From NCBI GenBank assembly GCA_026770705.1, contig JANJGN010001130.1, positions 62,001-126,000 on the forward strand: DNA of 64,000 bases, read 5' to 3'. Below are positions 34,224-63,227 of this stretch, piece after piece. A program made the position numbers and the translations under genes. Every line of letters starts with the position of its first letter. Position 1 is the stretch's first letter. This stretch comes from Isurus oxyrinchus. Its lineage: Eukaryota. Under the pieces are notes generated by a model. The model did no database searches and was not told the DNA's origin. It worked only from the letters and a program-made list of their open reading frames with translations.

Positions 34224-34728
34224 GTGAGTAATTTCAATCCTGACTTTTAAACAATTCCACATCTTGTCCAAACTCTGAGGTGAACCAAATCTCCCCTTGG
34301 GTGTTGCTGAAAACATGCTGTCGAAGGTTTCAGTCTCGTCAGGACAGAGTCACGAGAAAACCCAATCTCAAAGGGAACAGCCATTTCTGATGCGGGGGAA
34401 AAGGGCGTGCTGATTGGCTGGCAAATCGACATTTCTCCACAGTTTGTTCACAATTCTCAGTGATGGTGACCATGAAACTACCAGATTGTTGTAAAAACCC
34501 TTCAGTACTGTCCCTTCTACAGTGCAGATCTCCCTCGCTACTGACTCTCTGATAGTGTAGCACCCTCTCAGTACTGACCTTCTGACATTGAAGGACTCCC
34601 TCAGGACTGAACTGAAGAGTCTGCCTGAATTAAGTACTTTGTGGTGAAGGAACCTACATTGATATCACACCTTTCACATTCTCAGGGTCTCTCAAAGTGT
34701 TTCACAGTCAATGTAAGTAACTGATCAG

Positions 34729-35010
34729 ACACACCACAGAATCTCTCAATCAAATCTCTTGATATGATTAACGCTTCATCGATCAATATAATTGAGGGGA
34801 ATTCTGCAGTGATAATCTGCTCTGTCGAGAGCTCTCCTGCTTCTAACCTGACGTGACGACATCTTAATGTCCCAATGAACAGAACAAGTTCCAACAATGA
34901 GCTGTGGTTGGTGATTCCTCACGTTACATCCAGGGACACGGGACACTATCAGTGTGTGGCAGAGAATGAACATGGAGCAGTGGAGGGATTTATAACCATC
35001 TCTGTGGAAC
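34729..35010 (+). pseudogene. Inactivated copy of the repeated C2 exon in gene B
   Basis: TGG>TGA at 34854-34856, donor gtgagt>atgagt at 35011, and acceptor pyrimidine tract deleted relative to the intact paralogue at 53745. Confidence 0.9.
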
Positions 35011-35039
35011 ATGAGTTACACAGAATTGAACGTTCTCGT

Positions 35040-36090
35040 GTTATTAGCTCATGGGATGTGGGCATTGTTGACAAGACCAGAAATTATTGCCCATCTGTAA
35101 CTGCCCCTTGAGAAGGTGGTGGTGAGCTGCCTTCTTTTACCACTGCAGTCCATGTGGTGTAGGCGCACCCACAGTGCTGTTAGGGAGGGAGTTCCAGGAT
35201 TTTGTCCCAGTGATGGTGAAGGAACGGCCGATATAGTTCCAAGTCCCAGGGCAGACCACCACCTCAAGTTCACCTCCAAGTCACACACCTCACTGACTTG
35301 GAACTGTCTCAGTGGAAGAGGTTAAGAGTTTGGAAGGTGCTGTCGAAGGAGCCTTGGTGAGTTGCTGCAGTGCATCTTGTAGATGGTGCACACACTGCTG
35401 CCATTGTGTGCCAGTGGTGGAGGGTATGAATGTTTATGCTGGTGGATGGGCTGTCGATCAAACAAGCTACTCCTGGATGGTGTCGAGCTTCTTGAGTGTT
35501 GTTGGAGCTGCACTTATTCAGGCAATTGGAGGTTATTCCATCACACTCCTGACTTGTGCCTTGTCAACGGTGGACAGGCTTTGGGGAGTCAGGAGTTGAA
35601 TTACTCACTGCAGAGTTCCCAGCCTCTTACCCGCATTTGTAGCCACACTATTTCCTGTTGCCAGGTTGTTGCCAGGGCCAATAGCCTTTGCTGCATCCAG
35701 TATCATCAGCTGATTCCTGATGTCACGTGGAGTCAATCGAATTGTCTGAAAGCTGACATCTGTGATGCTGGGACCCTCTGGAGGAGGCCGAGATGGAGCA
35801 TCCACTCAGCACCTCTGGCTGAACATGGTTGCCAACGCTTCAGCCTTGTCGTTTGCACTGATGTGCTGAGCTCCCCCATCATTAAGGATGGGGATATTTG
35901 TGGAACATCCTCCTCCTGTTAGATCTTTAATTGTCCATCACTATTCATGACTGGATGTGGCAGGACTGCAGAGCTTAGATCTGACCCGTTGGTTGTGGGA
36001 TCGCTTTGCTCTGTCTATAGCATGTTGTTTCCGCTGTTTGGTGTGTATGTAGTCCTGTGTGTCACCTCAGCAGCTTGGCACCTCTGTTAT
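35040..36090 (-). mobile_element. CR1-clade LINE fragments (duplicated at ~54060-55100)
   Basis: Minus-strand PSITDVSFQTIRLTPRDI...AKAIGPGN, plus the reverse complement of the same 3' tail as the element at 16960-19035. Confidence 0.75.
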
Positions 36091-36276
36091 ATGTGAATCC
36101 TCCTTATAGAAACCTGCATGTACATGGATATTATCAATAAATATTACATAGATAAATGTTATTTGTACAGAGCTTTCATGCATAGACAATATCACTTCAC
36201 AAGTTCAGAATTACTACATGTACATAGGGAACCATTCTCAAACTGTACCGGAGTCATTCATTGGCTGATTTTACAG

Positions 36277-36373
36277 GGCGAGATTCCAATGAATGGAAAG
36301 CAGGATTGCTTGGAGCTGGAATCTGTTTGAGTGTTGGACTGAGTGGATTCTTCATCTTCAAGTGTGTGAGAAA
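36277..36373 (+). CDS. Gene B transmembrane exon (RDSNEWKAGLLGAGICLSVGLSGFFIFKCVRK)
   Basis: ttttacag|..AGAAA|gtaagt, 97 nt; appears identical to the gene C TM exon; unspliced read-through gives AAG TAA. Confidence 0.8.
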
Positions 36374-36979
36374 GTAAGTGTGAAGGTTTAATTTGTTGTC
36401 TTTGAACATGTTTTCTTCAACCTTCTCTCCTTTTCGAAAGAACTTGCATTTCTATAGCACCTTTCACAACCCAAAACCCTTCACAGCCCCTGAAGAGCTT
36501 TGATTTTCACCTACTGTTTAACATCTCATCCAACACTCACTGTTTCACAACTCCGTCCTGTAACTGGCAGTGTTGACCCGGACCATAAAATACCTTGTGA
36601 CTTCCTGAGGATGTGAAAGGTGCTATATAAATGAAAACATTTCCTTTGTTAGTGAATGCAATCTCTTTCCATTTTCCATTTTCCCTGTCGCATTCACTCT
36701 CTCTCTTATCTCCACTAATGCTCTCCTTCTCATTCTCTCTCTCTCTCATTCGCTCTCTCCAATCTCCACTAATGCTATCCTTCTCATTCTTTCTCTCGTC
36801 CTCTTACACAATGTTCAGTCTCTCACATTTTTAACATTTCGAGTCCGTATGACCCTTCTTCAGAGTCTATAAGCAAAAACTCTGTTTCTCTCTCCACAGC
36901 TGCTGCCAGACCTGCTGAGTTAAGGCAGCATTTTCCATTTTTATTGAAGATTTACAACATCTGCAGTATTTATTTTTAA

Positions 36980-37830
36980 TGAGAGGAGGACATTCAGCCC
37001 CTCGACCCTGTTACACAGGAACAGGAGGAGGCCATTCAGCCCCCTCGAGCCTGTTACACAGGAACAGGAGGAGGCCATTCAGCCCCCTCGAGCCTGTTAC
37101 ACAGGAACAGGAGGAGGCCATTCAGCCCCATGAGCCTGTTATACAGGAAAAGGAGGAGGCCATTCAGCCCCTCAAGCCTGTTTCAGGAACAGGAGGAAGC
37201 CCATTCAGCCCCTCGAGCCTGTTACACAGCAACAGGAGGAGGCCCATTCAGCCCCTCGAGCCTGTTACACAGGAACAGGAGGAGGCCCATTCAGCCCCTC
37301 GAGCCTGTTACACAGCAACAGGAGGAGGCCCATTCAGCCTCTCGAGCCTGTTACACAGCAACAGGAGGAGGCCCATTCAGCCCCTCGAGCCTGTTACACA
37401 GGAACAGGAGGAGGCCCATTCAGCCCCTCGAGCCTGTTACACAGGAACAGGAGGATGTCCATTCAGACCTTCAAGCCTCTAACACCAGAACGGAAGGAGG
37501 TCATTTCAGCCCCATGAGCTTGATGAACAGGAACAGGAGGAGGTCCATTCAGCCCCTCAAGTCAGTTACATAGGAACAGGAGAAGTCTCATTCAGCCACA
37601 CGAGCATCTTATATAAGAACATGAGGGGGCCCAAACAGCCCCTCAAGGCTGTTACACAAGAAGCGGAGGAGGAGGTTCATTCAGTCCCTCGAGGCAGTTT
37701 TACAGGAACAGGAGGAGGCCCATTCAGCCACACAAGCCTCTTACACAAGAACAGGAAGAGGTCCATTCAGCCCCTCAAGCCTGTTACACAGGAACAGGAG
37801 GAGGCCCGTTCAACCACCTCGAGCTTGTTG
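36980..37830. repeat. ~43-44-bp VNTR (cattcagcccctcgagcctgttacacaggaacaggaggaggcc) upstream of a promoter module
   Basis: Tandem units; resembles the reverse complement of a CR1 3' end; paralogous array at ~59540-60310. Confidence 0.9.
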
Positions 37831-37869
37831 CATGTGAACAGTCGATGGCCCTTCAGCCACATTGTTGGC

Positions 37870-38075
37870 ACGCAAAGGGTTAACAGTTTTCTAACTGTGC
37901 GAGGCAAAGAGTTGCTTTCTAACTTGGTACTAACCACTTCCTCATTTTGTCTCACAGAGACACATCAACCCTTTCTCATTAAATACACAGAGGGAGCAGC
38001 ACAGGAAGAGGTCATTCAGCCCAAGCAGAGCGTGTGGGCAGTTCCTCCCCAGGCGAGCAGTCGGACAGGTCCTGG
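37870..38075 (+). promoter_or_regulatory. Putative promoter and non-coding exon 1 of the gene family, with a PU.1-type site
   Basis: accacttcctcatttt (AAAATGAGGAAGTGGT on the minus strand) at ~37933-37948; donor tgg|gtaagt at 38076; the module recurs at ~40130, ~56000 and ~60350. Confidence 0.55.
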
Positions 38076-38518
38076 GTAAGTAACGGAACGATTGGAATTC
38101 ACTTCCACGACCAACACTGTCCTTTGTTGATGTTGTGACTTTATAAAGACAGATTCCAATGATTGATGCCTTTGAAAGATTTCTACTGATTATTGAGATC
38201 TGGGTGTGAGGCTCAAGTCTGTTGTACAGAATATCTTTCTAGCTCAAGGGATGAGGGAAGAGCAGGGACATGAGCTTTGGGGTGTCCTGAGCAGGTGAAA
38301 GGCGATATAGAAATGCAAGTCCTTCATTGTTTTACTTTCTTAAAGCCTTGTAATTCTCTGCAGAGCACCTATCATCCCACAGAGAATCAAATTAGTCTGC
38401 GAAGACATTGTCTAAAAGCAGTTCTGATCTCTCGAGAGCTGTCGGACAAGAGGTGAGGTCTCGTTAACTCATTTCTCTTTCACAGCTTGAGAACCAATGA
38501 AATACCTGGGAGTGGACA

Positions 38519-38558
38519 ATGATCAGGAAATCTTACTTCCTCCTGTCACTTCTCCAAG
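38519..38558 (+). pseudogene. Orphan (or alternative) leader exon MIRKSYFLLSLLQ with no V exon of its own
   Basis: Intact acceptor (38485) and donor; the following intron matches gene A intron 1 but stops at a 33-bp array (~39765). Confidence 0.7.
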
Positions 38559-39345
38559 GTAATATCATTGTCAGCTCGGATAGATTTATGGCTAATCATC
38601 TTTGTAAAACATAATTCTTATTGAGCTGTGATTGGTAACAGATTCAGCAGTGAGCCAGTGTACAATCTCACACCAAGTCCCATTCACCCATCACCCCTGT
38701 GCTCACTGATATACACTGACTCCCTGTCTGACAGCAGAATTGGTGGAGAGCAGAGGACTTTGAGGTTTGCATGGTTGGAGGAGAAAGTGATTGGAGAAGA
38801 GGAATGGAGGGAATGGAAATTGAGGATGAGAGTCTTAAACTTGAGGCTCTGCTGGACTGGGAGCCAGTGCAGGTCAGCGAGTGGCAGAGGGTGTGAGGTG
38901 CTGAGTCGAGAAACAGTGATAAATACTGGGGGATGAAGTCTATCCTGATGCTTGGACGCCGATAGCAAAGGAATGAAATTTGTGTCTTTTCCTGATTTTA
39001 ATCAGAATTTCCCATGAAGACAACACAGCAGCTCCTAGAATAGACAGGCTGTTCAGTGTCACACTTCCTGTCCATTCTCACCTTGCTAGATACTTCAATA
39101 AGGGAGCAAGATAACTGAAAGAGAGAAGGAAGGTAAAGCTGTCCGTGTGTAAAGGTGTCAATATTCAGTTTGCATATTTGTCTTTCTCTCAACACATGCA
39201 GAGCTCAGGCTAGAGGTGATTTGTTATTGTGTTTCACAGTGTCTGCTGGAGTAGGGTCAGTGCTGAGCTTGGGGACAAGTCAGTCTACAATGCTGCATTG
39301 GAATCAACAATACAACAATATGGGGTTTGGATCAGAAATAATCCC

Positions 39346-39608: not shown

Positions 39609-40793
39609 ACCTACAAAGTGCACCAATCAGATTGAATCAGATTAGCCAATCAGCTGTGTTGAAGAGCAGACAGGAATGTTAGGCTAATTAGTGATTCATG
39701 ACGGTGATAATGGGGGGAGTTCTGAGGGCTCCTAATCCATTGTCCTGTCTTGTAAATCAGCACCTTAATACTGACCCTCCAACAGTGCAGCACTCCCTCA
39801 GTACTGATCCTCCAACATTGCAGCACTCCCTGATTAATGTCCCTCTGACAGTGCAGCAATCCCTCAGTACTGACCCTCAGACAGTGGAGATCTCCCTCAG
39901 TACTGACCTTACAATAGTGAAACACTCGCTCAGTAATGACCATCCAACAGTGCAGCACTTGCTCAGTACTGACACTGGGGAGTTTCAGTCTACTCTGTGG
40001 GGCAGACGTCCCCTGAATCGGGTCTTGAACCCCACAACGTTCTGACCCCCTGAATTTGGCTGTGAAACCCACTGACCCAAAGGAGAAACTCCTGGTCAAT
40101 GACTGTCCACCTGTGAGCAGAAATATCACCACAGGGTCAGGACACAAAGGGTTAACAGTTCACCAACATCTCAAAACATGAGCTGCTCTGTCACTTTGAT
40201 CCAACTTCCTCATTTTGTCTCACAGTGACACATCCACCCTTTCTAATTAAACACACAGAGGGAGCAGCACAGGAAGCGGTCATTCAGCCCAAGCAGAGCG
40301 TGTGGGCAGTTCCTCCCCAAGCGAGCAGTTGGACAGGTCCTGGTTAAGTAACGGAACGATTGGAATTCACTTCCACCACGAACACCGTCCTTTGTTGATG
40401 TTGTGACTTTATAAAGACAGATTACAATGATTGATGCCTTTCAAAGATTTCTACTGATTATTGAGATCAGGGTGTGAGCCTCAGGTCTGTTGTACAGAAC
40501 ATCTTTCTAGCTCAAAGGATGAGGGAAGAGCAGGGACATGAGCTTTGGGACATCCTGAGGTGGTGAAAGGTGCTATAGAAATGCAAGTCCTTCATTGATT
40601 TATTTTTTTACAGCTTTTTAACTCTCTGCAGAGCACCTATCATCCCACAGAGAACCAAATTAGTCTGTGTAGACATTGTCTAAAAGCAGTTCTGATCTCT
40701 CGAGAGCTGTCGGACAAGAGGTGAGGTCTCATTAACTCCTTTCTCTTTCACAGTTTAAGAGTCAGAAGCTAAAGGAATATCTGGGAGTGGACA

Positions 40794-40833
40794 ATGATCG
40801 GGAAATCTTACTTCCTCCTGTCACTTCTCCAAG
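40794..40833 (+). CDS. Gene C leader exon MIGKSYFLLSLLQ
   Basis: Acceptor ttcacag at 40753, ATG at 40794, phase-1 donor. Confidence 0.8.
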
Positions 40834-41849
40834 GTAATATCATCGTCAGCTTGAACAGACTTATGGCTAATAGTCTTTGTAAAAGAACATTCTTATGGAG
40901 ATCTGATAGGGAACTGATTCAGCAGTGAGTCAGTGTACAAACTCACACCACGTCCCATTCACCCATCACCCCTGTGCTCACTGATATACACTGACTCCCT
41001 GTCTGACAGCAGAACTGCAGGACAGCAGAGACCTCAAAGGGTTTCAGGGCTGGAGAAGGTGACAGTGATAGGGATTAGAGAGGGAGAATGGAGGGATAAG
41101 GAATCAATGAAGAGATTTTGAAAATTGAGTCATTGTTGGACTGGGAGCCAGTGTAGGACAGCGAGTGACAGGGTAGCGACCGGCTGAATAGAGAAGCAGG
41201 GATAAAAACTGGGGGATGAAGTCTATCCTGATGCAAGCACTCCGATATCAATGCCCTGAAATTTTTCTCTCTTGCTGATTTTAGTCAGAATTTCCCATGA
41301 AGACAACACAGCAGCTCCTAGAATAGACAGGCTGTTCAGTGTCACACTTCCTGTCCATTCTCACCTTGCTAGAAACTTCAATAAGGGAGCAAGATAACTG
41401 AAAGAGAGAAGGAAGGTAAAGCTGTCTGTGTGTAAAACTGTCAAATATTCTGAGTTATCATGATTGTCTCTGACCTGCTGCAGAGTTTATATTTCATTGA
41501 AACTTATCACTTTGCAGCTCAGAGAGAGACCATTGACTCACTGCCTGAAAGGGCGGTGGAAGCAGATTCAACAGGAACTTTCAGAAGGGGAACTAGATAA
41601 ATACTTGAAGGGGACATTTTGCAGGGCTGTGGGGGAGAGAGCAGAGGTGAGAGTGGGACTAATTGGACAGATCTTTCAAAGGCCCAGCACAGGCTCGATG
41701 GGCCAAATGGCTTCCTTCAGTTCTGGATCATTCCACAATCCGATAAATTAAATCTCTTTTCAGTAACTCTTCAGGCTCCCGCTGCAGGAATGGATCTTTC
41801 AGAAGGGCAGGGAACAAGCGGTTTCTCATATCATGTTCATATTTATTGA

Positions 41850-44800
41850 CAATTACATAAGTGCATGGAACTGTTGAATATTTGACTCTCTAAAGTTTGG
41901 ATTTAACCTTCTGGTCCACCCAGATCTTGTGCTGGTTACCTTGTCTGGAGGTGTCTTTAACTGCTCACAGTGATCTGTGGGATTGTCACCCTTGGATGTT
42001 GTTCCTGATTTCATGTGGGATCTTCTCCTCGATGGAATAGGAGCGGGAATGGATCTGATTTATCCTCGGTTCCGCCTCACCGCTGTGCCCTTGTGTGTTT
42101 GACTCCATAGGCCCTTGGTTCTGAACAAATCCTTGTCACCTCAGCTGGTGGTCATGAACCTTCTGTGGGATCCTGGATGTGAACTTGTCCCAACTCTGCA
42201 CCTCCATTTTTATCATGAACATTCCTTATCTTCTCTTGTAGTTTTAAAAGTTGCCCTCTGGTTTCTTAGAGAGTAGAATGGGTAAGAGTAGCGAAATTGG
42301 TCACTACTGGCACACCAAACATGATTTCTGTCAGTGATGGAATAAGGTGAGGTGATGGTGTAGTGGTATTGTTGCTGGACGAGTAATTCAGAGACCCAGG
42401 GTAATGTCCTGAGAATATGGGTTCAATTCCGGCCATAATAGATGATGGAATTTGAATTTAATAAAAATATGAAATTCAAAGTCTAGTGATGACCACAAAA
42501 CCATTGTTGGAAATCCCACCTGGTTCACCAGTGCCGTTTAGGGAACAAAATTGTCTGGCCGACATGTGACTCCAGACTCCACGTCAATGTGGTTGACTCT
42601 TACATTAGGGATGGGTAATAAATCCTGGCCTCGCCAGTGACTCCCACATCCCATGAATGAATTTAACAAAGTTGCAGTTGTAGGTGTCGATCTCAGATGT
42701 AACATTGCAATGTGTGGATCTTGCTTGGTCTGTCTACATTTGAGAATTAGGGATTTCACTGTGTGCATCATTCATTCAATTATGCTGTTAGATCTGGGGT
42801 AATGAGGAGAAGAAGTAATGTGATTGATATTCCAGATTATCTGTAATCATGTCCCTAGGTTCACCAAATAAACTGAAAATAGTGCTTAGAGTGTGTGCAC
42901 CAGTTGTGCTCGGTGTGTTGTGCTATTTTTGAATAACGGGATATCTGGTAAAGCTGTCGACGATGACAATGATGTCAGTGACATGGACATGAAAGGATTC
43001 AGATGTGATTTTGGACTAAGAATAGGCAGGAATTTCCTGTGGAATCAGTGGTTCTTTGTGTTGACTTGGCTCATCCTCTTGACAAGCCTCGTACTTCCCT
43101 ACAACAACTTCAAGGTCATTGTTCATACCCGGCCAGGGACTGTATCTCTTGTGAGTCTCCTTGACTGATCTGTGCCCATGTGTGAGGGATGAAGTTGTTG
43201 AAGAATATAGGATCACAAATGTGCCGGTATGATGCCCTGCCTGCCATTAAAAATGACTCCCTGGGAGATGCCTCGCTTATCTCGATGAGGTCAAGTTGAA
43301 TCAGGCCACCCTTTCAATGATATTTCCACAGTTCCTGCAGAATTTTTCACTGTTCCCTCTTGTAGCTGCTGGCATTTCTGTTGTGCTAAATGTACTGGAT
43401 CAATTGACAGACTTGCATTCTCCTGCAGGTGTAATGTTGCAGCTCCCTTGAAACTGACAATACTGTTGAAACTTTCTGCATATTTCAATGTTATGTCCAT
43501 GAACTGAGTTGCTGGGGTAGTTTCTGAGTTTGACCCATGTGAGGTCTGACAGATTCCATGGATTGTCTCTAGGGTGAGGTCACCGCATGCCGGTAGACTT
43601 GCAATTGCTCAGCCTTTAGTCTCCATGATGTAGAACATCTGTGACACCCAGGAGGATTGATTGTACTTGCACCCCAGGACTATGGATTCTGCACATGGAG
43701 TTGAAGTGTTGTACACAGCAATAGGTTTCCCCATGGACTCCCATGTCCTTGGATACATGTCTTTGAAAATTTGCTGGGGTGGGCTGTGGGAGGGGAATGT
43801 TGGCACTTGCCCCTGTGTCAATCTTGATCAGTAAAGGTGAGGTTGCAACTTTCTCAGGGCAGAAAATTGGAATCTTGGCCAATAGTGCGGGTGATGTAAC
43901 TGCATCTGTTCTTCGTGAGATTGATGGTGTAAAAGGTTTGAAATTGTTCAACAATTGTACAATACGTTGAGCACAACTGTTGCACAAACTCTAGGCTGGG
44001 GTTTTCCGGCACAGTCATGATGGGACCTGCCGTGGGAGATTGGACAAACATTGGCTTTCGGCCGGACCGGACAATCCTGGCAGTGGGTGGGGCCAGAAAA
44101 TCCCACCCCTATGGGACATTTTCAGTTTATTTGATGTGCCCAGAGAGATCTTTAAAGACAACAATCCACAATTTATTGGCAAGCCACGTCAGGATATGTG
44201 TGAGAGGTGGAATATCGATCACCGCTCCTCGTCTCACCATGTACATCATCGCTATTTCCTGGTTTGTCAGTCACCACATGTATATGTTCCTGATGGGATA
44301 GTGGATGGTCATTCTTATTGCTTGAAGGTTCCCCGTTGTGTAGGGTCTGTTTGGATCAGCCCACGGCTCTTTGTAGCTGCATCAGCCTTTGCTCTAGTGC
44401 CCTGCCGCTGTCAATGGCCCTTTCTGCCACAAGCCTTGCAGGATTGGTGGAAAGCTGGGCATTTCCTTGGTGCCTGCAGAAGGCCAAACCTTCCACACGT
44501 CTCACTAGGTTTGGATGTTCTAGTGAGTGTGTCAACAATTGATGTTGTACTGAGGACCTGTAAGCTTCGTTGACCTGCGAGGATCACTTCGTATTTATGT
44601 CCATCCTTGAGTAGCTCTTCAATGCTATAGGTTTTGGTCGTATCTAGCAGTTCTCACCACGAGGGATCCGTCTGCTCCCCAGCTCTTTACTTGAGCTCTT
44701 TCCCGTCACTGTGTCTTCAAAGGTTTCCTGAGCAGTCAGTACACTGCGATTTCAACCCTCTCTGATGCTGTGTCTCTGTTGTGGTCTGACCAAAGCGTCG

Positions 44801-45050
44801 AAGCATGACTCATGTCATCTAGCTCGATCTAAGGTTGTTCACCACGTCATACCTGTACTGAATCTTGCTGCCAGAATGTTTGGCCACCGCTGATCAACAT
44901 GTTGTGTTTTTATAATGATATAAAGGCACCAGCCACTGATACGGAATTGGGTAAATACATTGTGGGTTCAGTTATTTAGAATAGGGACATGAGAACAGAT
45001 ATACAAGGATAGAAAGCTGGGAGACACCTGTAGCCAAACTGTGTGAGCTG
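41850..45050 (-). mobile_element. Decayed Ty3/Gypsy LTR retrotransposon in gene C intron 1 (with an HE1-like SINE inserted at ~42350-42668)
   Basis: Minus-strand protease IKIDTGASANI, integrase zinc-finger H..WPGMNND..C..KEPL and SSPHYPRSN..HTVK; degenerate tRNA-Leu-like PBS near 44885-44900; boundaries approximate. Confidence 0.75.
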
Positions 45051-47027
45051 TGTTCTGCTCACAGGCTAAAGTGAAACTTGGACTGGATGGTGTTATCATC
45101 CCAGCTGATGTTACTACTGGGCAAGTCAGATCCCAGGGTGGAGCTCAGCTTGATAGGTCCTAACTTTTATTTTTTAGTTAGGAATGAGGAGTGCAGCTAC
45201 TGAACAGAGTCACAGGAGTCATCTGATGAACTTCTAACTAAAGAATAAAACATTTATTAAACTAGGAAAGACAAACTATATGACATTTCTCCTTCACCCA
45301 GACCTATTCATTTACAGATATATACAGATTCATAAAGATAACACAAGTTACAATAGCTATCTTATACTCTCATGTTCACACTAAGTACACAGTCCATGTA
45401 AACCAATAGACGACCTGTGGTCAGGGACAGCACATTCTAAAATCAAGTGACAGAACCCACTTGAAACAAATGCTATGTCTCCCTCCTCATCTGACCCCAG
45501 ACGCTTGTTACACTGTGAGCCAACCAGTCACACTGAACTGAGATATCCATATGAGGGTTTCCAATCTCAAAGAGAGCCAAGTGCTCTCTTTGGAATCTTC
45601 TCCAACATGACACTTTCACTCAGACACCTACCACAAGGCTCCACTTTCACTATTTCAAACTCTCCTTCCCATGTTCCTGCCCCCTGGATCGCCACGTGCA
45701 TTCAGCCTTCCTTCCACGCCCTGTCTCTCCAATGCTCAGCCGTGTCAATGGAACACCATGGCTTCACATGGCCGTAGTAATGAGTCACCAACCTGTGGTG
45801 TCTCCTAGGATCTTCTGGCTTCTCACAAGCCTATTTTGCTTTCGGCCTGTGTCCTGCTGCTTTCTCCCTTTATGCTTGAAGCCTTCTTCTGCTCCTCACT
45901 CTTAACTTCACTTAACAGGGCCTTTTCCAGATTTGACTAGAGGGTCTTCTTGGGCCCTTTCTCCTGTTCCACTCGATAGTTTTGGCTTCTTCTTTACTTT
46001 GGGACTGACTATCTGTCCCGCTCCTTTGCTGCTTCTCCTGGCAACTCCTTTCAACAGAACTGAAAGTACTTTTCTGTTTTTCTCGGTCTCTGTGGGTCCT
46101 TCCCTCTGCATCACTGTTGCTAGGCAACAGCACAGTTTCTTACGCCTTGTATTTCTCTTGACTTCCCTTCAACAGTCAGAAAACCTCAAAGGAATGCTGG
46201 CTTCTTTTAAAGTCAAATTCTATCTCTTCAAAACACCTAAACACAAAAATACAAACTAAACTTGAACTTAAAGATAGACCTTATGCCTAACACACAAATA
46301 GACACATAGAACTGACTTAAGCCAACCGCCGTTCCTATAGATCACATGACACACTTCCCCTCGAGTGATGTCATGCTGCTGTCCCTGAAAGGCATATTAC
46401 AACAGTGTTATCACTTGGCAGGTGATGTGTGCCAGGCAGACCAAGTCCATGAGAGAAAGGTGGTCACACTATCATAATGATTTTGCAATTTGTATTTATT
46501 ATGAGATGTGTGCACTGAATTCAGAAGCAATAAGTCCACCAAGAAATTTAGAGAATTAAAAAAATAAATTAAAATATTTGTCATCAAAATAAAAGATTTC
46601 AAGCACATACATAACTACAATGACAGCTATAATAACTCCTAAAATTCCTAATTAACCTGATCCCCAGTTACACTCATTTTAAAGCAACAGACCAAAAATA
46701 GATATTAGATTTAAAACAAACTTAGCAAGTTAACCCAATGCCCTGGACAGTGTAATTCCTAATGGATTTTCCCCAACTTCAGTTCTGTTGGATAGCAGGC
46801 TTGTGCACAAACAGGGTCCTGAGGACCATGAGCCAATGTAGAATGACCTTGTCAACTCCTGTGTCCAGGATTCCCTTCCATCCATTGGGAAACCTTGGGG
46901 AGTTCCATGTGTGTCCTGCAGATGGTCCACACAGCAGCCACTGTGCCCCAGTGATGGAGGGAGTGGATATCGAGTCTAGTGGATCTACAAATTATCCAGA
47001 TTTAAATATTGATATTTCTCTCCCCAG

Positions 47028-60310: not shown

Positions 60311-60999
60311 TGAACAGTCGATGGCCCTTCAACCACATTCTTGGCACGCAAAGGGTTAACAGTTTTCTAACAGTGCGAGGCAAAGAGCTGCTTTCTCACT
60401 TGGTACCAAGACTTCCAATTTTGTCTCACAGAGACACATCCACCCTTTCTAATTAAACACACAGAGGGAGCAGCACAGGAAGAGGTCATTCAGCCCAAGC
60501 AGAGCGTGTGGGCAGTTCCCCCCCAGGCGAGCAGTCGGACAGGTTCTGGGTAAGTAACGGAACGATTGGAATTCACTTCCACCACCAACACCGTCCTTTG
60601 TTGATGTTGTGACTTTATAAAGACAGATTCCAATGATTGATGCCTTTGAAAGATTTCTACTGATTATTGAGATCTGGGTGTGAGGCTCAAGTCTGTTGTA
60701 CAGAACATCTTTCTAGCTCAAGGGATGAGGGAAGTGCAGAGACATGAGCTTTGGGATGCCCTGAGGTGGTGAAAGGTGCTATAGAAATGCAAATCCTTCA
60801 TTGTTTGTCTTACTTAAAGCCTTGTAACTCTCTGCAGAACACCTATCATCCCACAGAGAATCAAATTAGTCTGTGAAGACATTGTCTAAAAGCAGTTCTG
60901 ATCTCTCGAGAGCTGTCGGACAAGAGGTGAGGTCTCATTAACTCCTTTCTCTTTCACAGCTTGAGAGTGAGAAGTGGATGGAATATCTGGGAGTGGACG

Positions 61000-63227
61000 A
61001 TGGTCGGGAAATCTTACTTCCTCCTGTCACTTCTCCAAGGTAATATCATCATCAGCTCGGACAGATTTATGTTTAACAGTCTTTGTAAAATTTCATTCTT
61101 ATCTCTTTATCTCTGTAACCTCCTGCAACTCACCCAAACAACTTCCCAGATCTCTGTGCTACTCCAATTCCGGCCTCTTGACCATCCCCCGATTCCCATC
61201 ACTCCAATACTGGCGGCCGTGCCTTCAGCTGCCTGGGGCCTGAGCTCTGGAATTCACTCCCTAAACCTCGGGGATGGAGGAGATCAGAGGGTTTCATTTT
61301 ACTGAGAATCACCACGACCACATCACAGCTGCAGTGAGAATAGACAGAGAGTCCAGCCCTCACACTTCCTGCACAGTTTCACCATAGCAACCACAATATG
61401 GAAATTTAAAAATACTGAAAGTTAAACTGAAGCTCAAACCAGTCAGTGTAGAGAGATGAGATGTTTACACAGTTTCCCTGTGTATCTTGTAGACACTGTG
61501 TTGGGTGGAAGACTGGCTTCACTAAACAGGGTCCTGAGGACCATGAGCCAATGTAGAATGAACTTGTCCACTCCAGTGTCCAGGATTCTCTTCCCTCCGT
61601 TGTGAAACCTTGGGGAGATCCCTGTGTGTCCTGTAGATGGTCCACACTGCAGCCACTGTGCCCCACTGATGGAGGGGGTGGATATCGAGTCTAGTGGATC
61701 TACAAACCATCCAGAGTTAAATATTGATATTTCTCTCCCCAGTTGGACTGTCACAAGAGTGGAAAGGCGACACGCCACGAGAGGTGACAGCACAGGAAGG
61801 TTTGTGTGTACAGATTTTATGTCATTACAGTTACTTATCAAATTTCGTAGGGAGATCACGTGTCGGAATCTGGTTGAAAGGAATAGATGGGAACCCTACA
61901 GCCTGAATGGTCTATAGCCTTTCACTCCGAGGTTCACAGTCACAGGGATCAAAGATTCCGCCATCGGACCCGACTGTCTGGAGACCTGAAAGATGGTGAC
62001 TGTTCCGTGATTATAAACAACATCAGACGGGAAGATGCAGGACCTTATTTTTTCAGAATAGAATTTGACAGCAGGAATAGATACAACTACTACCCTGTAA
62101 CCCAGCTTCACATTTCTGGTAAGTGCTGTGTTATAATTACAAAACAATTCACATTCAACACTCAATGGGAAATAACACAAACTGTGACGTTTACATATTA
62201 ACACAAAACACAGCTTATTATAACTTGCTATCTGATTCTCAATAACCTGGTGATTGCTTCCAGTTCAGTCCTAAAGCAACCTCTAATACTCACTTTAATA
62301 TCAATGATGAAAAGCATTAACTGTATTATCAGGTTACCACACCCATCAATCTCTCCTGTCCTGTTTAAAAGTCTGACGTATCGATAAAAGAAAGATGTGC
62401 ATTTCTGCAGCGCAATTTACCACCTCAGGAGGATCCAAATCCCTTCACAGCCAATGAAATTATTCCTGAATTGTAGTCACAGATGTAAAACACAGCAGGC
62501 AGTTTGTGCACAGCAAGATCCAACAAACCACAAGGTGATAAATCACCCAGATCACTGAGGAAATGAGAAGCCAGTGAACTCAAACCTCTGGTCTGATGAA
62601 GAGTCATACGGACTCGAAACGTTAACTCTGTCTTCCTCTCCACTGATACTGTCAGACCTGCTGAGTCTTTCCAGCAATTTTTGTTTTTGTTTCAGATTTC
62701 CAGCATCCACAGTATTCTGCTTTCAACTCCAATCTCTGGTCTGAGCCTCTTCTCTCATCCAGTGTTCTCAATTCACATGTCTCGGAGTGAACGTGTATTA
62801 AGCTGAGAGACAGAAACACTACTGCCAAAGAGCAAGAAAATCTCTCCTGATCATTGTAACCTCTCAGTTCTGATATCATCCTTTTAAAAGTGCTTTCTCT
62901 TGTGGCGCTGTGGTTTCTATTTGAACTGATGCTTCACATTATATTTCTCTAAAAGGATCCATTCTCTGTCTGTTAGATTTCACAGATAAACCCATGATAT
63001 TCCCTGCTGAAATTATTGCAGGAAAGCGTGTGGATGTAAGCTGCACCTTCAACACAACGTGCAATGGAACAGCAGCACCTGTCTTAACCTGGGACACTCC
63101 CACTGACGTACCTGGATCAGTCTCAAACACTGTAACTCAGCATGGTGTCACTCTGACCTATACTTCTGTTCTGACCCTGATCCCATCACTCAAACACCAT
63201 GGACACACTCTCAGCAATGTATTTTAG
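61000..63227 (+). pseudogene. Gene D: Siglec-like pseudogene (leader 61000..61039, V 61743..62118, truncated D2 62977..63215)
   Basis: V exon is 376 nt (not a multiple of 3) with an in-frame TGA at 61904-61906; D2 homology ends at 63215 just before the F-strand Cys, then TAG at 63225-63227 and the 33-bp array. Confidence 0.85.

Follow-up and report, generated by a model that had tools for sequence, protein, structure and literature searches.

A hybrid Siglec-like receptor gene of Isurus oxyrinchus, probably fused inside a CR1 element, and a 33-bp minisatellite as an occasional joint of domain shuffling

Introduction

Two described systems come closest to the genes studied here. In the consulted part of PMC2816608, KIR hybrids have their breakpoints in intronic Alu and MLT1 elements, and hairpin-forming DNA is proposed as a trigger. 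CD33-related Siglecs, according to the consulted part of PMC8198044, evolve by duplication, conversion, deletion, exon shuffling and pseudogenization. Here we examine gene B in a 64,000-nucleotide window of Isurus oxyrinchus (assembly GCA_026770705.1, contig JANJGN010001130.1; G000:C1130:62001-126000 in our notation, unprefixed coordinates being window positions). The window sits within a large shark cluster of Siglec/MAG-like genes, in which V-set, C2 and I-set exons (phase 1) are followed by transmembrane (TM) and tail exons. An earlier reading of this window (the sequence-only reading) had proposed that B is a chimera and that dispersed 33-bp minisatellites in phase-1 introns act as recombination joints for domain shuffling. 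We find that B is indeed a chimera, and we consider it probable that it arose by fusion of an unfused B-type gene (B1) with a C-type gene at a microhomology inside a CR1 element, the conspicuous join at 34500 being likely a later deletion into the minisatellite.

In the genome searched (4.98 Gb), the C-type TM exon has at least 40 matches and one tail exon at least 40, spread over many contigs; copy counts are possibly inflated up to about twofold, as some contigs may be alternate haplotypes. The literature searched yielded no paper on a shark Siglec-like cluster or on the 33-bp repeat (supplements of shark genome papers, which were left unread, may list the expansion), and this very large cluster appears to be undescribed so far.

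Results and discussion

Gene B joins two receptor lineages

The features of gene B, with gene C for comparison, are as follows.

29471..29516, plus strand: leader exon of B type, ending in phase 1 and matching the start of white shark protein P0001
30337..30693, plus strand: V-set exon, MAG/Siglec-like, with YYFYVD against YYFRGD in MAG, hence without the Siglec arginine
30816..31400, minus strand: 33-bp minisatellite array in B intron 2
33170..33457, plus strand: C2-type exon (D2), open; spliced-boundary contigs of a paralog occur in runs X14 and X16
33966..34223, plus strand: Ig (immunoglobulin) exon (D3), open; present as tandem copies in unfused B genes
34498..34500, plus strand: junction, at CCC, from a truncated element resembling a short interspersed element (SINE) to the array remnant
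about 34498..34614, plus strand: degenerate 33-bp array remnant of 3.4 units
34615..36797, plus strand: C-type 3′ module (post-array intron, I-set exon, intron, TM exon)
34729..35010, plus strand: I-set pseudo-exon, with TGA at 34854, an AT donor and the acceptor tract deleted
36277..36373, plus strand: TM exon of B, its protein identical to the TM of C
36831..36834, plus strand: TTAA microhomology junction, no minisatellite
36831..38621, plus strand: intergenic block with a 43-bp satellite, a tail-exon copy (37958-38075) and an orphan A-type leader (38519-38558)
40794..58204, plus strand: gene C, with leader, V (arginine kept), C2, 3.3-kb array (50322-53622), I-set, TM and three cytoplasmic exons

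The sequence-only reading had B nearly identical to C from a degenerate array onward. That array does mark the start of the C-like part (~34498-34610), and the resemblance holds for 34615-36797, which aligns to C at 53619-55802 with 94% identity (2199 bp). It does not hold for the second block: 36831-38621 aligns at 85-88% to 59388-61102, a region that starts beyond the last exon of C (58204) and belongs to the following gene, of which it holds the leader and upstream part. Because this block lies outside gene C, B is without C's two last cytoplasmic exons; the TTAA junction removes about 3.5 kb that includes them, and it is absent from the 20 paralogs examined. The I-set exon of window B is dead (stop codon, broken donor, acceptor tract gone), and, judging from intron phases, skipping it would hold the frame from D3 to TM. 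The first domains of B had been called unrelated to C, which proved too strong: compared with gene A exons, the V domain has 28% identity (E 1e-14) and the C2 domain 44% over 55 aa, so that by sequence similarity they are distant paralogs of the A/C type. For the V exon of B, identity reaches 95% with a white shark protein and 93% with one of basking shark. For contigs from X14 and X16, runs that are only guessed to be RNA, the alignment to D2 shows 12 differences and falls exactly on the exon edges, which hints at splicing of some B-type gene.

Both parents were found in unfused form, including the B parent that the sequence-only reading had wished to see sought. A 200-kb stretch of contig C150 holds three B-type genes without I-set, two of them with an A-type TM and tail; B1 (G000:C150:1148145-1180731) has an extra D4 exon and its own TM and tail. 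The B1 form, V-C2-C2-D4-TM, also occurs in catshark, bamboo sharks, sawshark, and white and basking shark. The C form, V-C2-I-set-TM-tail with an A-type V, is carried with tail exons by 20 of 84 shark proteins, which makes the tail native to C; the idea that C is itself the chimera was rejected, its architecture being widespread in sharks. In white shark, P0001 and P0013 are of the unfused B1 type, and P0043 and P0058 are of the C type. Since both unfused forms are found in other sharks, both parents are old and B is the chimera.

The fusion lies inside a CR1 element in relatives of B

Among 53 matches found for B, the best 20 non-self loci were taken as the paralog set, and all 20 have the C-type I-set and TM. 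Eight share the SINE-to-array join of window B (class I); the other 12 (class II) carry at this position at least 3.4 kb of SINE and CR1 sequence plus an array of 0.7-1 kb. The SINE and CR1 labels are our own reading of the sequence, made without a library match, and we take the CR1 to be a long interspersed element (LINE).

Of the best 40 matches to the CR1 3′ end, 28 at non-B loci were examined. All 28 are of A/C type with CR1 inserted inside the intron-3 array, seen within the locus's own stretch at 27 and via an adjoining stretch at one. Sixteen of these have a long CR1, and the match to class II B begins at the same base. A three-way alignment resolves this point: B1 reads ...TGT-ATCTCA-CAG (the D4 acceptor), C reads ...CATG-ATCTCA-GAA, and the hybrid follows B1 on the left and CR1 on the right, with the 6-bp microhomology ATCTCA at the fusion in 10 of the 12 class II copies. 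On the CR1 the fusion point lies at about 760 bp, with 2.3 kb between it and the next array; the B1 parent is without such a CR1 there, and only the 6 bp are common to both parents. In these 10 copies the fusion is therefore inside the CR1 LINE, and we infer the same origin for the window copy. Class II hybrid architecture is also seen in white shark P0008 and P0009 (86-97%), which suggests, from protein architecture, that the fusion likely predates that split.

The join at 34500

A tblastn search of the 3.4-kb class II intron for a lost exon found none. At the 34500 join, therefore, the repeat is one-sided and no exon was changed; the join is likely a later deletion of about 4 kb of intron, without loss of an exon, ending in the minisatellite. 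In trees, window B, class I and class IIa stand apart from the unfused B genes (99/98), and the 3′ flanks of class I cluster with long-CR1 C genes (94/97); both groupings fit one fusion followed by a deletion.

The same groupings speak against a second, independent B1 x C fusion straight into the array as the source of the class I join. For such an event it can be said that the class I remnant is unlike class II array ends and that class I forms its own clade, but one B lineage (with a single D3) and one C lineage would each have to take part on two occasions, the left side of class I clusters with class IIa and its right side with long-CR1 C genes, and the join would remain one-sided. We regard a second fusion as improbable and retain a single fusion with a later deletion.

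Misassembly at repeats, which would have undone the sequence-only reading, deserves almost no credence here. The cluster is indeed spread over many contigs that are unplaced, and within the aligned segment some copies show no difference. The 34500 join, however, is found in 9 copies that lie on 6 contigs and carry independent substitutions, a 590-bp contig from a different run, X14, spans it ungapped (34194-34783), and white shark proteins show the hybrid.

Within the fetched stretch, class II paralogs retain one or both of the last two tail exons, the first in any case. C's first cytoplasmic tail exon also recurs ahead of almost all A-type leaders (56050-56167, 37958-38075, 40228-40345 and 60432-60549), and the class I paralogs likely lost their tail through a crossover in this ~310-bp tail-exon repeat.

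The minisatellite at other breakpoints

Three further places in the window had been read as breakpoints at the 33-bp repeat.

5153..5243, plus strand: intron-3 array of gene A, at the ancestral position, its 3′ side joined to the intron of a later I-set unit
39758..39763, plus strand: junction of the deletion at the orphan leader, with CAGCAC as the microhomology and the array in one parent alone
63214..63215, plus strand: truncation of the C2 of gene D at a GC microhomology, the first repeat unit following 11 bp farther on

Arrays do lie at or beside all of them (5153-5243, 39751-39989 and 63203 onward); five base shuffles at the same threshold gave 0, 0, 0, 6 and 0 array windows. At the orphan leader, A-type intron 1 is joined to the array at CAGCAC. 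At all four named joints (34500, 39763, 63215 and ~5230), however, the repeat is on one parent only, so that they are not exchanges between dispersed arrays, and the break in gene D is 11 bp off. Nor did the minisatellite make B, as had been supposed, for the family fusion lies in the CR1 LINE.

The repeat is common, with 7402 exact matches to a 74-base pattern genome-wide. Overlap between breakpoints and arrays was counted in four contiguous stretches (812 kb), two chosen for B genes and one around a CR1-array match, hence not a blind sample. The 123 arrays occupy 7.8% of bases, or 8.5% with a 25-bp margin. By a crude branch-end count that under-recovers repeats and still includes transposon edges and some mis-snapped sites, 19 of 203 breakpoint ends (P = 0.37) and 12 of 101 exon-changing ends (P = 0.15) fall in arrays, against 8.5% expected, and the claimed overlap above chance is thus not significant. 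This count replaced a graph junction caller (252 events, 153 after small-indel merging, 14-21 at the repeat); a first junction caller, with 229 noisy groups, had been dropped.

The flanks of the arrays give another picture. By hand count, 49 distinct flank pairings include about 5-7 derived joints that are two-sided and about 8 that are one-sided; 4.5% two-sided joints are predicted under independence (P = 0.0015 even for 4/12). Examples of array-to-array joints are a deletion from an intron-3 array to an upstream array (C1130:142911) and an inversion (C838:173964). Three loci without leader and V (L025-L027) were considered as array-to-array inversions at B intron 2 and rejected, since their flanks differ.

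It is in this light that dispersed arrays as the principal joints of domain shuffling, B included, have to be judged. Arrays mark all four named places, two-sided joints exceed their expectation, eight paralogs carry a head-to-head domain swap (below), and per base the repeat has about 2.8 times the breakpoint ends of other tandem repeats. Set against this, the fusion of B lies in CR1, each of the four named joints has the repeat on a single parent, the repeat is absent from 89 of the 101 exon-changing ends, and only one domain-swapping event was found. A principal role is not supported, and we hold it to be unlikely. Of the original proposal there remain the two-sided joints above independence and one swap, in which the minisatellite acted as an occasional joint between domains.

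Two palindromes were noted in the 33-bp unit (50372-50470), and three units fold at -15.1 kcal/mol with DNA parameters, a value without a shuffle control.

A head-to-head swap of the V domain

Window B keeps its B-type V, unlike its 8 class I paralogs, in all of which an A-type leader, V and C2 replace the V of B. At the joint (G000:C838:108165-109273 and L169-L175), a plus-strand A-type intron array meets a minus-strand B intron-2 array at the palindrome TCAGTACTGA, so that here the array is on both parents. An unfused A parent was found at L188, one of five candidates. Both introns at the joint are phase 1, and 4 of the 8 copies have all six exons open. The swap is a single event that was amplified, and it brings the Siglec arginine onto the B stalk (D2 and D3); in 84 other shark proteins with an A-type V, neither the D2 nor the D3 of B is present. 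It is the only domain-swapping event found at the repeat, and the further proposition that the repeat is, through TCAGTACTGA, a recurrent, orientation-independent joint for swapping the ligand-binding V domains of different shark Siglec-like lineages, with the A-V/B-stalk form amplified to eight by selection, seems to us rather doubtful. The head-to-head joint nevertheless offers a concrete, testable case of a dispersed tandem repeat as a shuffling joint.

Proposed history and points against it

We propose that the intron-3 array of a C-type gene would first have received a CR1. After a break at the D4 splice acceptor, a B1 gene would then have been joined to the middle of this CR1, with microhomology-mediated repair as the likely mechanism; since every intron concerned is phase 1, the product, V-C2-C2-I-set-TM-tail, would be in frame. 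The hybrid would have been amplified, one branch would have lost about 4 kb of intron from the SINE to the array, and the window copy would later have lost its tail while its I-set exon decayed. The minisatellite would be one substrate among several, catching breakpoints roughly in proportion to its length and making some array-to-array joints.

Several observations weigh against this account. The base-level reading covers 10 of the 12 class II copies, and the other two fall with the unfused genes at D2. The 111-bp remnant of class I could not be traced to a parent array (the best match among the arrays compared was 97 of 111 bases), so that the deletion from a CR1-joined ancestor is supported by trees and not by shared repeat variants. 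Gene models of whale, zebra and sawshark join B ectodomains to I-set and TM, and the hybrid architecture may therefore be older or recurrent; these joins may be independent fusions or merged models. In the breakpoint count, other tandem repeats received 5.4% of ends against 14% expected, and a real minisatellite enrichment may be hidden.

Other rearrangements in the cluster

A second hybrid type, with a B ectodomain, an A-type TM and a tail resembling an immunoreceptor tyrosine-based inhibitory motif, was observed twice on C150 (G000:C150:1094342-1113746 and 1122234-1141440) and also in basking shark P0004 and P0007. A near-identical I-set exon is repeated in tandem, with about 8 units in gene A (5264-12464) and 22 in a C150 gene (G000:C150:1055686-1082619); B genes have a parallel D3 array of up to 11 units. 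A simple repeat joins a B-type leader to an A-type V (G000:C838:204884-215900), and at least 8 leader-plus-upstream units stand in tandem ahead of one gene (G000:C150:1035070-1051041). In the window, the C2 3′ end of gene C is partly duplicated after an N stretch (50069-50129), and gene D has a frameshifted V exon and a truncated C2 (61743-62118), with a near-identical D unit next at G000:C1130:128405.

Comparison with known systems

The V-set of B has homology to MAG (E 2e-14) and sialoadhesin (E 4e-11) and scores above the Pfam V-set cut-off, and, as in Siglecs, C2/I-set domains and then a TM follow. The conserved Siglec arginine, the residue to which sialic acid binds, is missing in all 10 B-type V exons examined and kept in the A/C-type V, and window B, having lost its two last tail exons, has no cytoplasmic tyrosine motif. 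We therefore describe B as Siglec-like and do not file it as a Siglec. Annotated shark models named MAG-like, CD22-like or Siglec-like, which are automatic names only, match the hybrid, B1 and C forms; the eight-copy V swap is not on record among them. With CD33-related Siglecs, as treated in the consulted part of PMC8198044, the shark genes share such processes of change as well as V-set and C2 domains, a TM and tyrosine-motif tails; unlike them, the shark genes are nearest to MAG and sialoadhesin by sequence, have at least 40 C-type TM copies and, in B, a V without the arginine.

As a hybrid gene, B has both unfused parents in existence and a junction mapped at base level in its class II relatives. 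The shuffling of domains between two ancient receptor lineages can thereby be followed base by base, and three look-alike mechanisms in one window can be told apart, namely fusion at a microhomology within a LINE, one-sided deletion into an array and array-to-array exchange. B and the KIR hybrids are alike in that both are hybrid receptors from dense clusters of Ig-receptor genes, and in both the breakpoints fall in interspersed repeats within introns. They differ in that KIR hybrids, in the consulted part of PMC2816608, arise between homologous repeats of near-identical genes, whereas B shows no crossover within a repeat homologous on both parents and joins lineages about 28% alike in V through 6 bp in a CR1 present in one parent. 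The part of that account consulted contains no minisatellite joint; in the shark cluster, a head-to-head minisatellite joint is present in eight paralogs of B.

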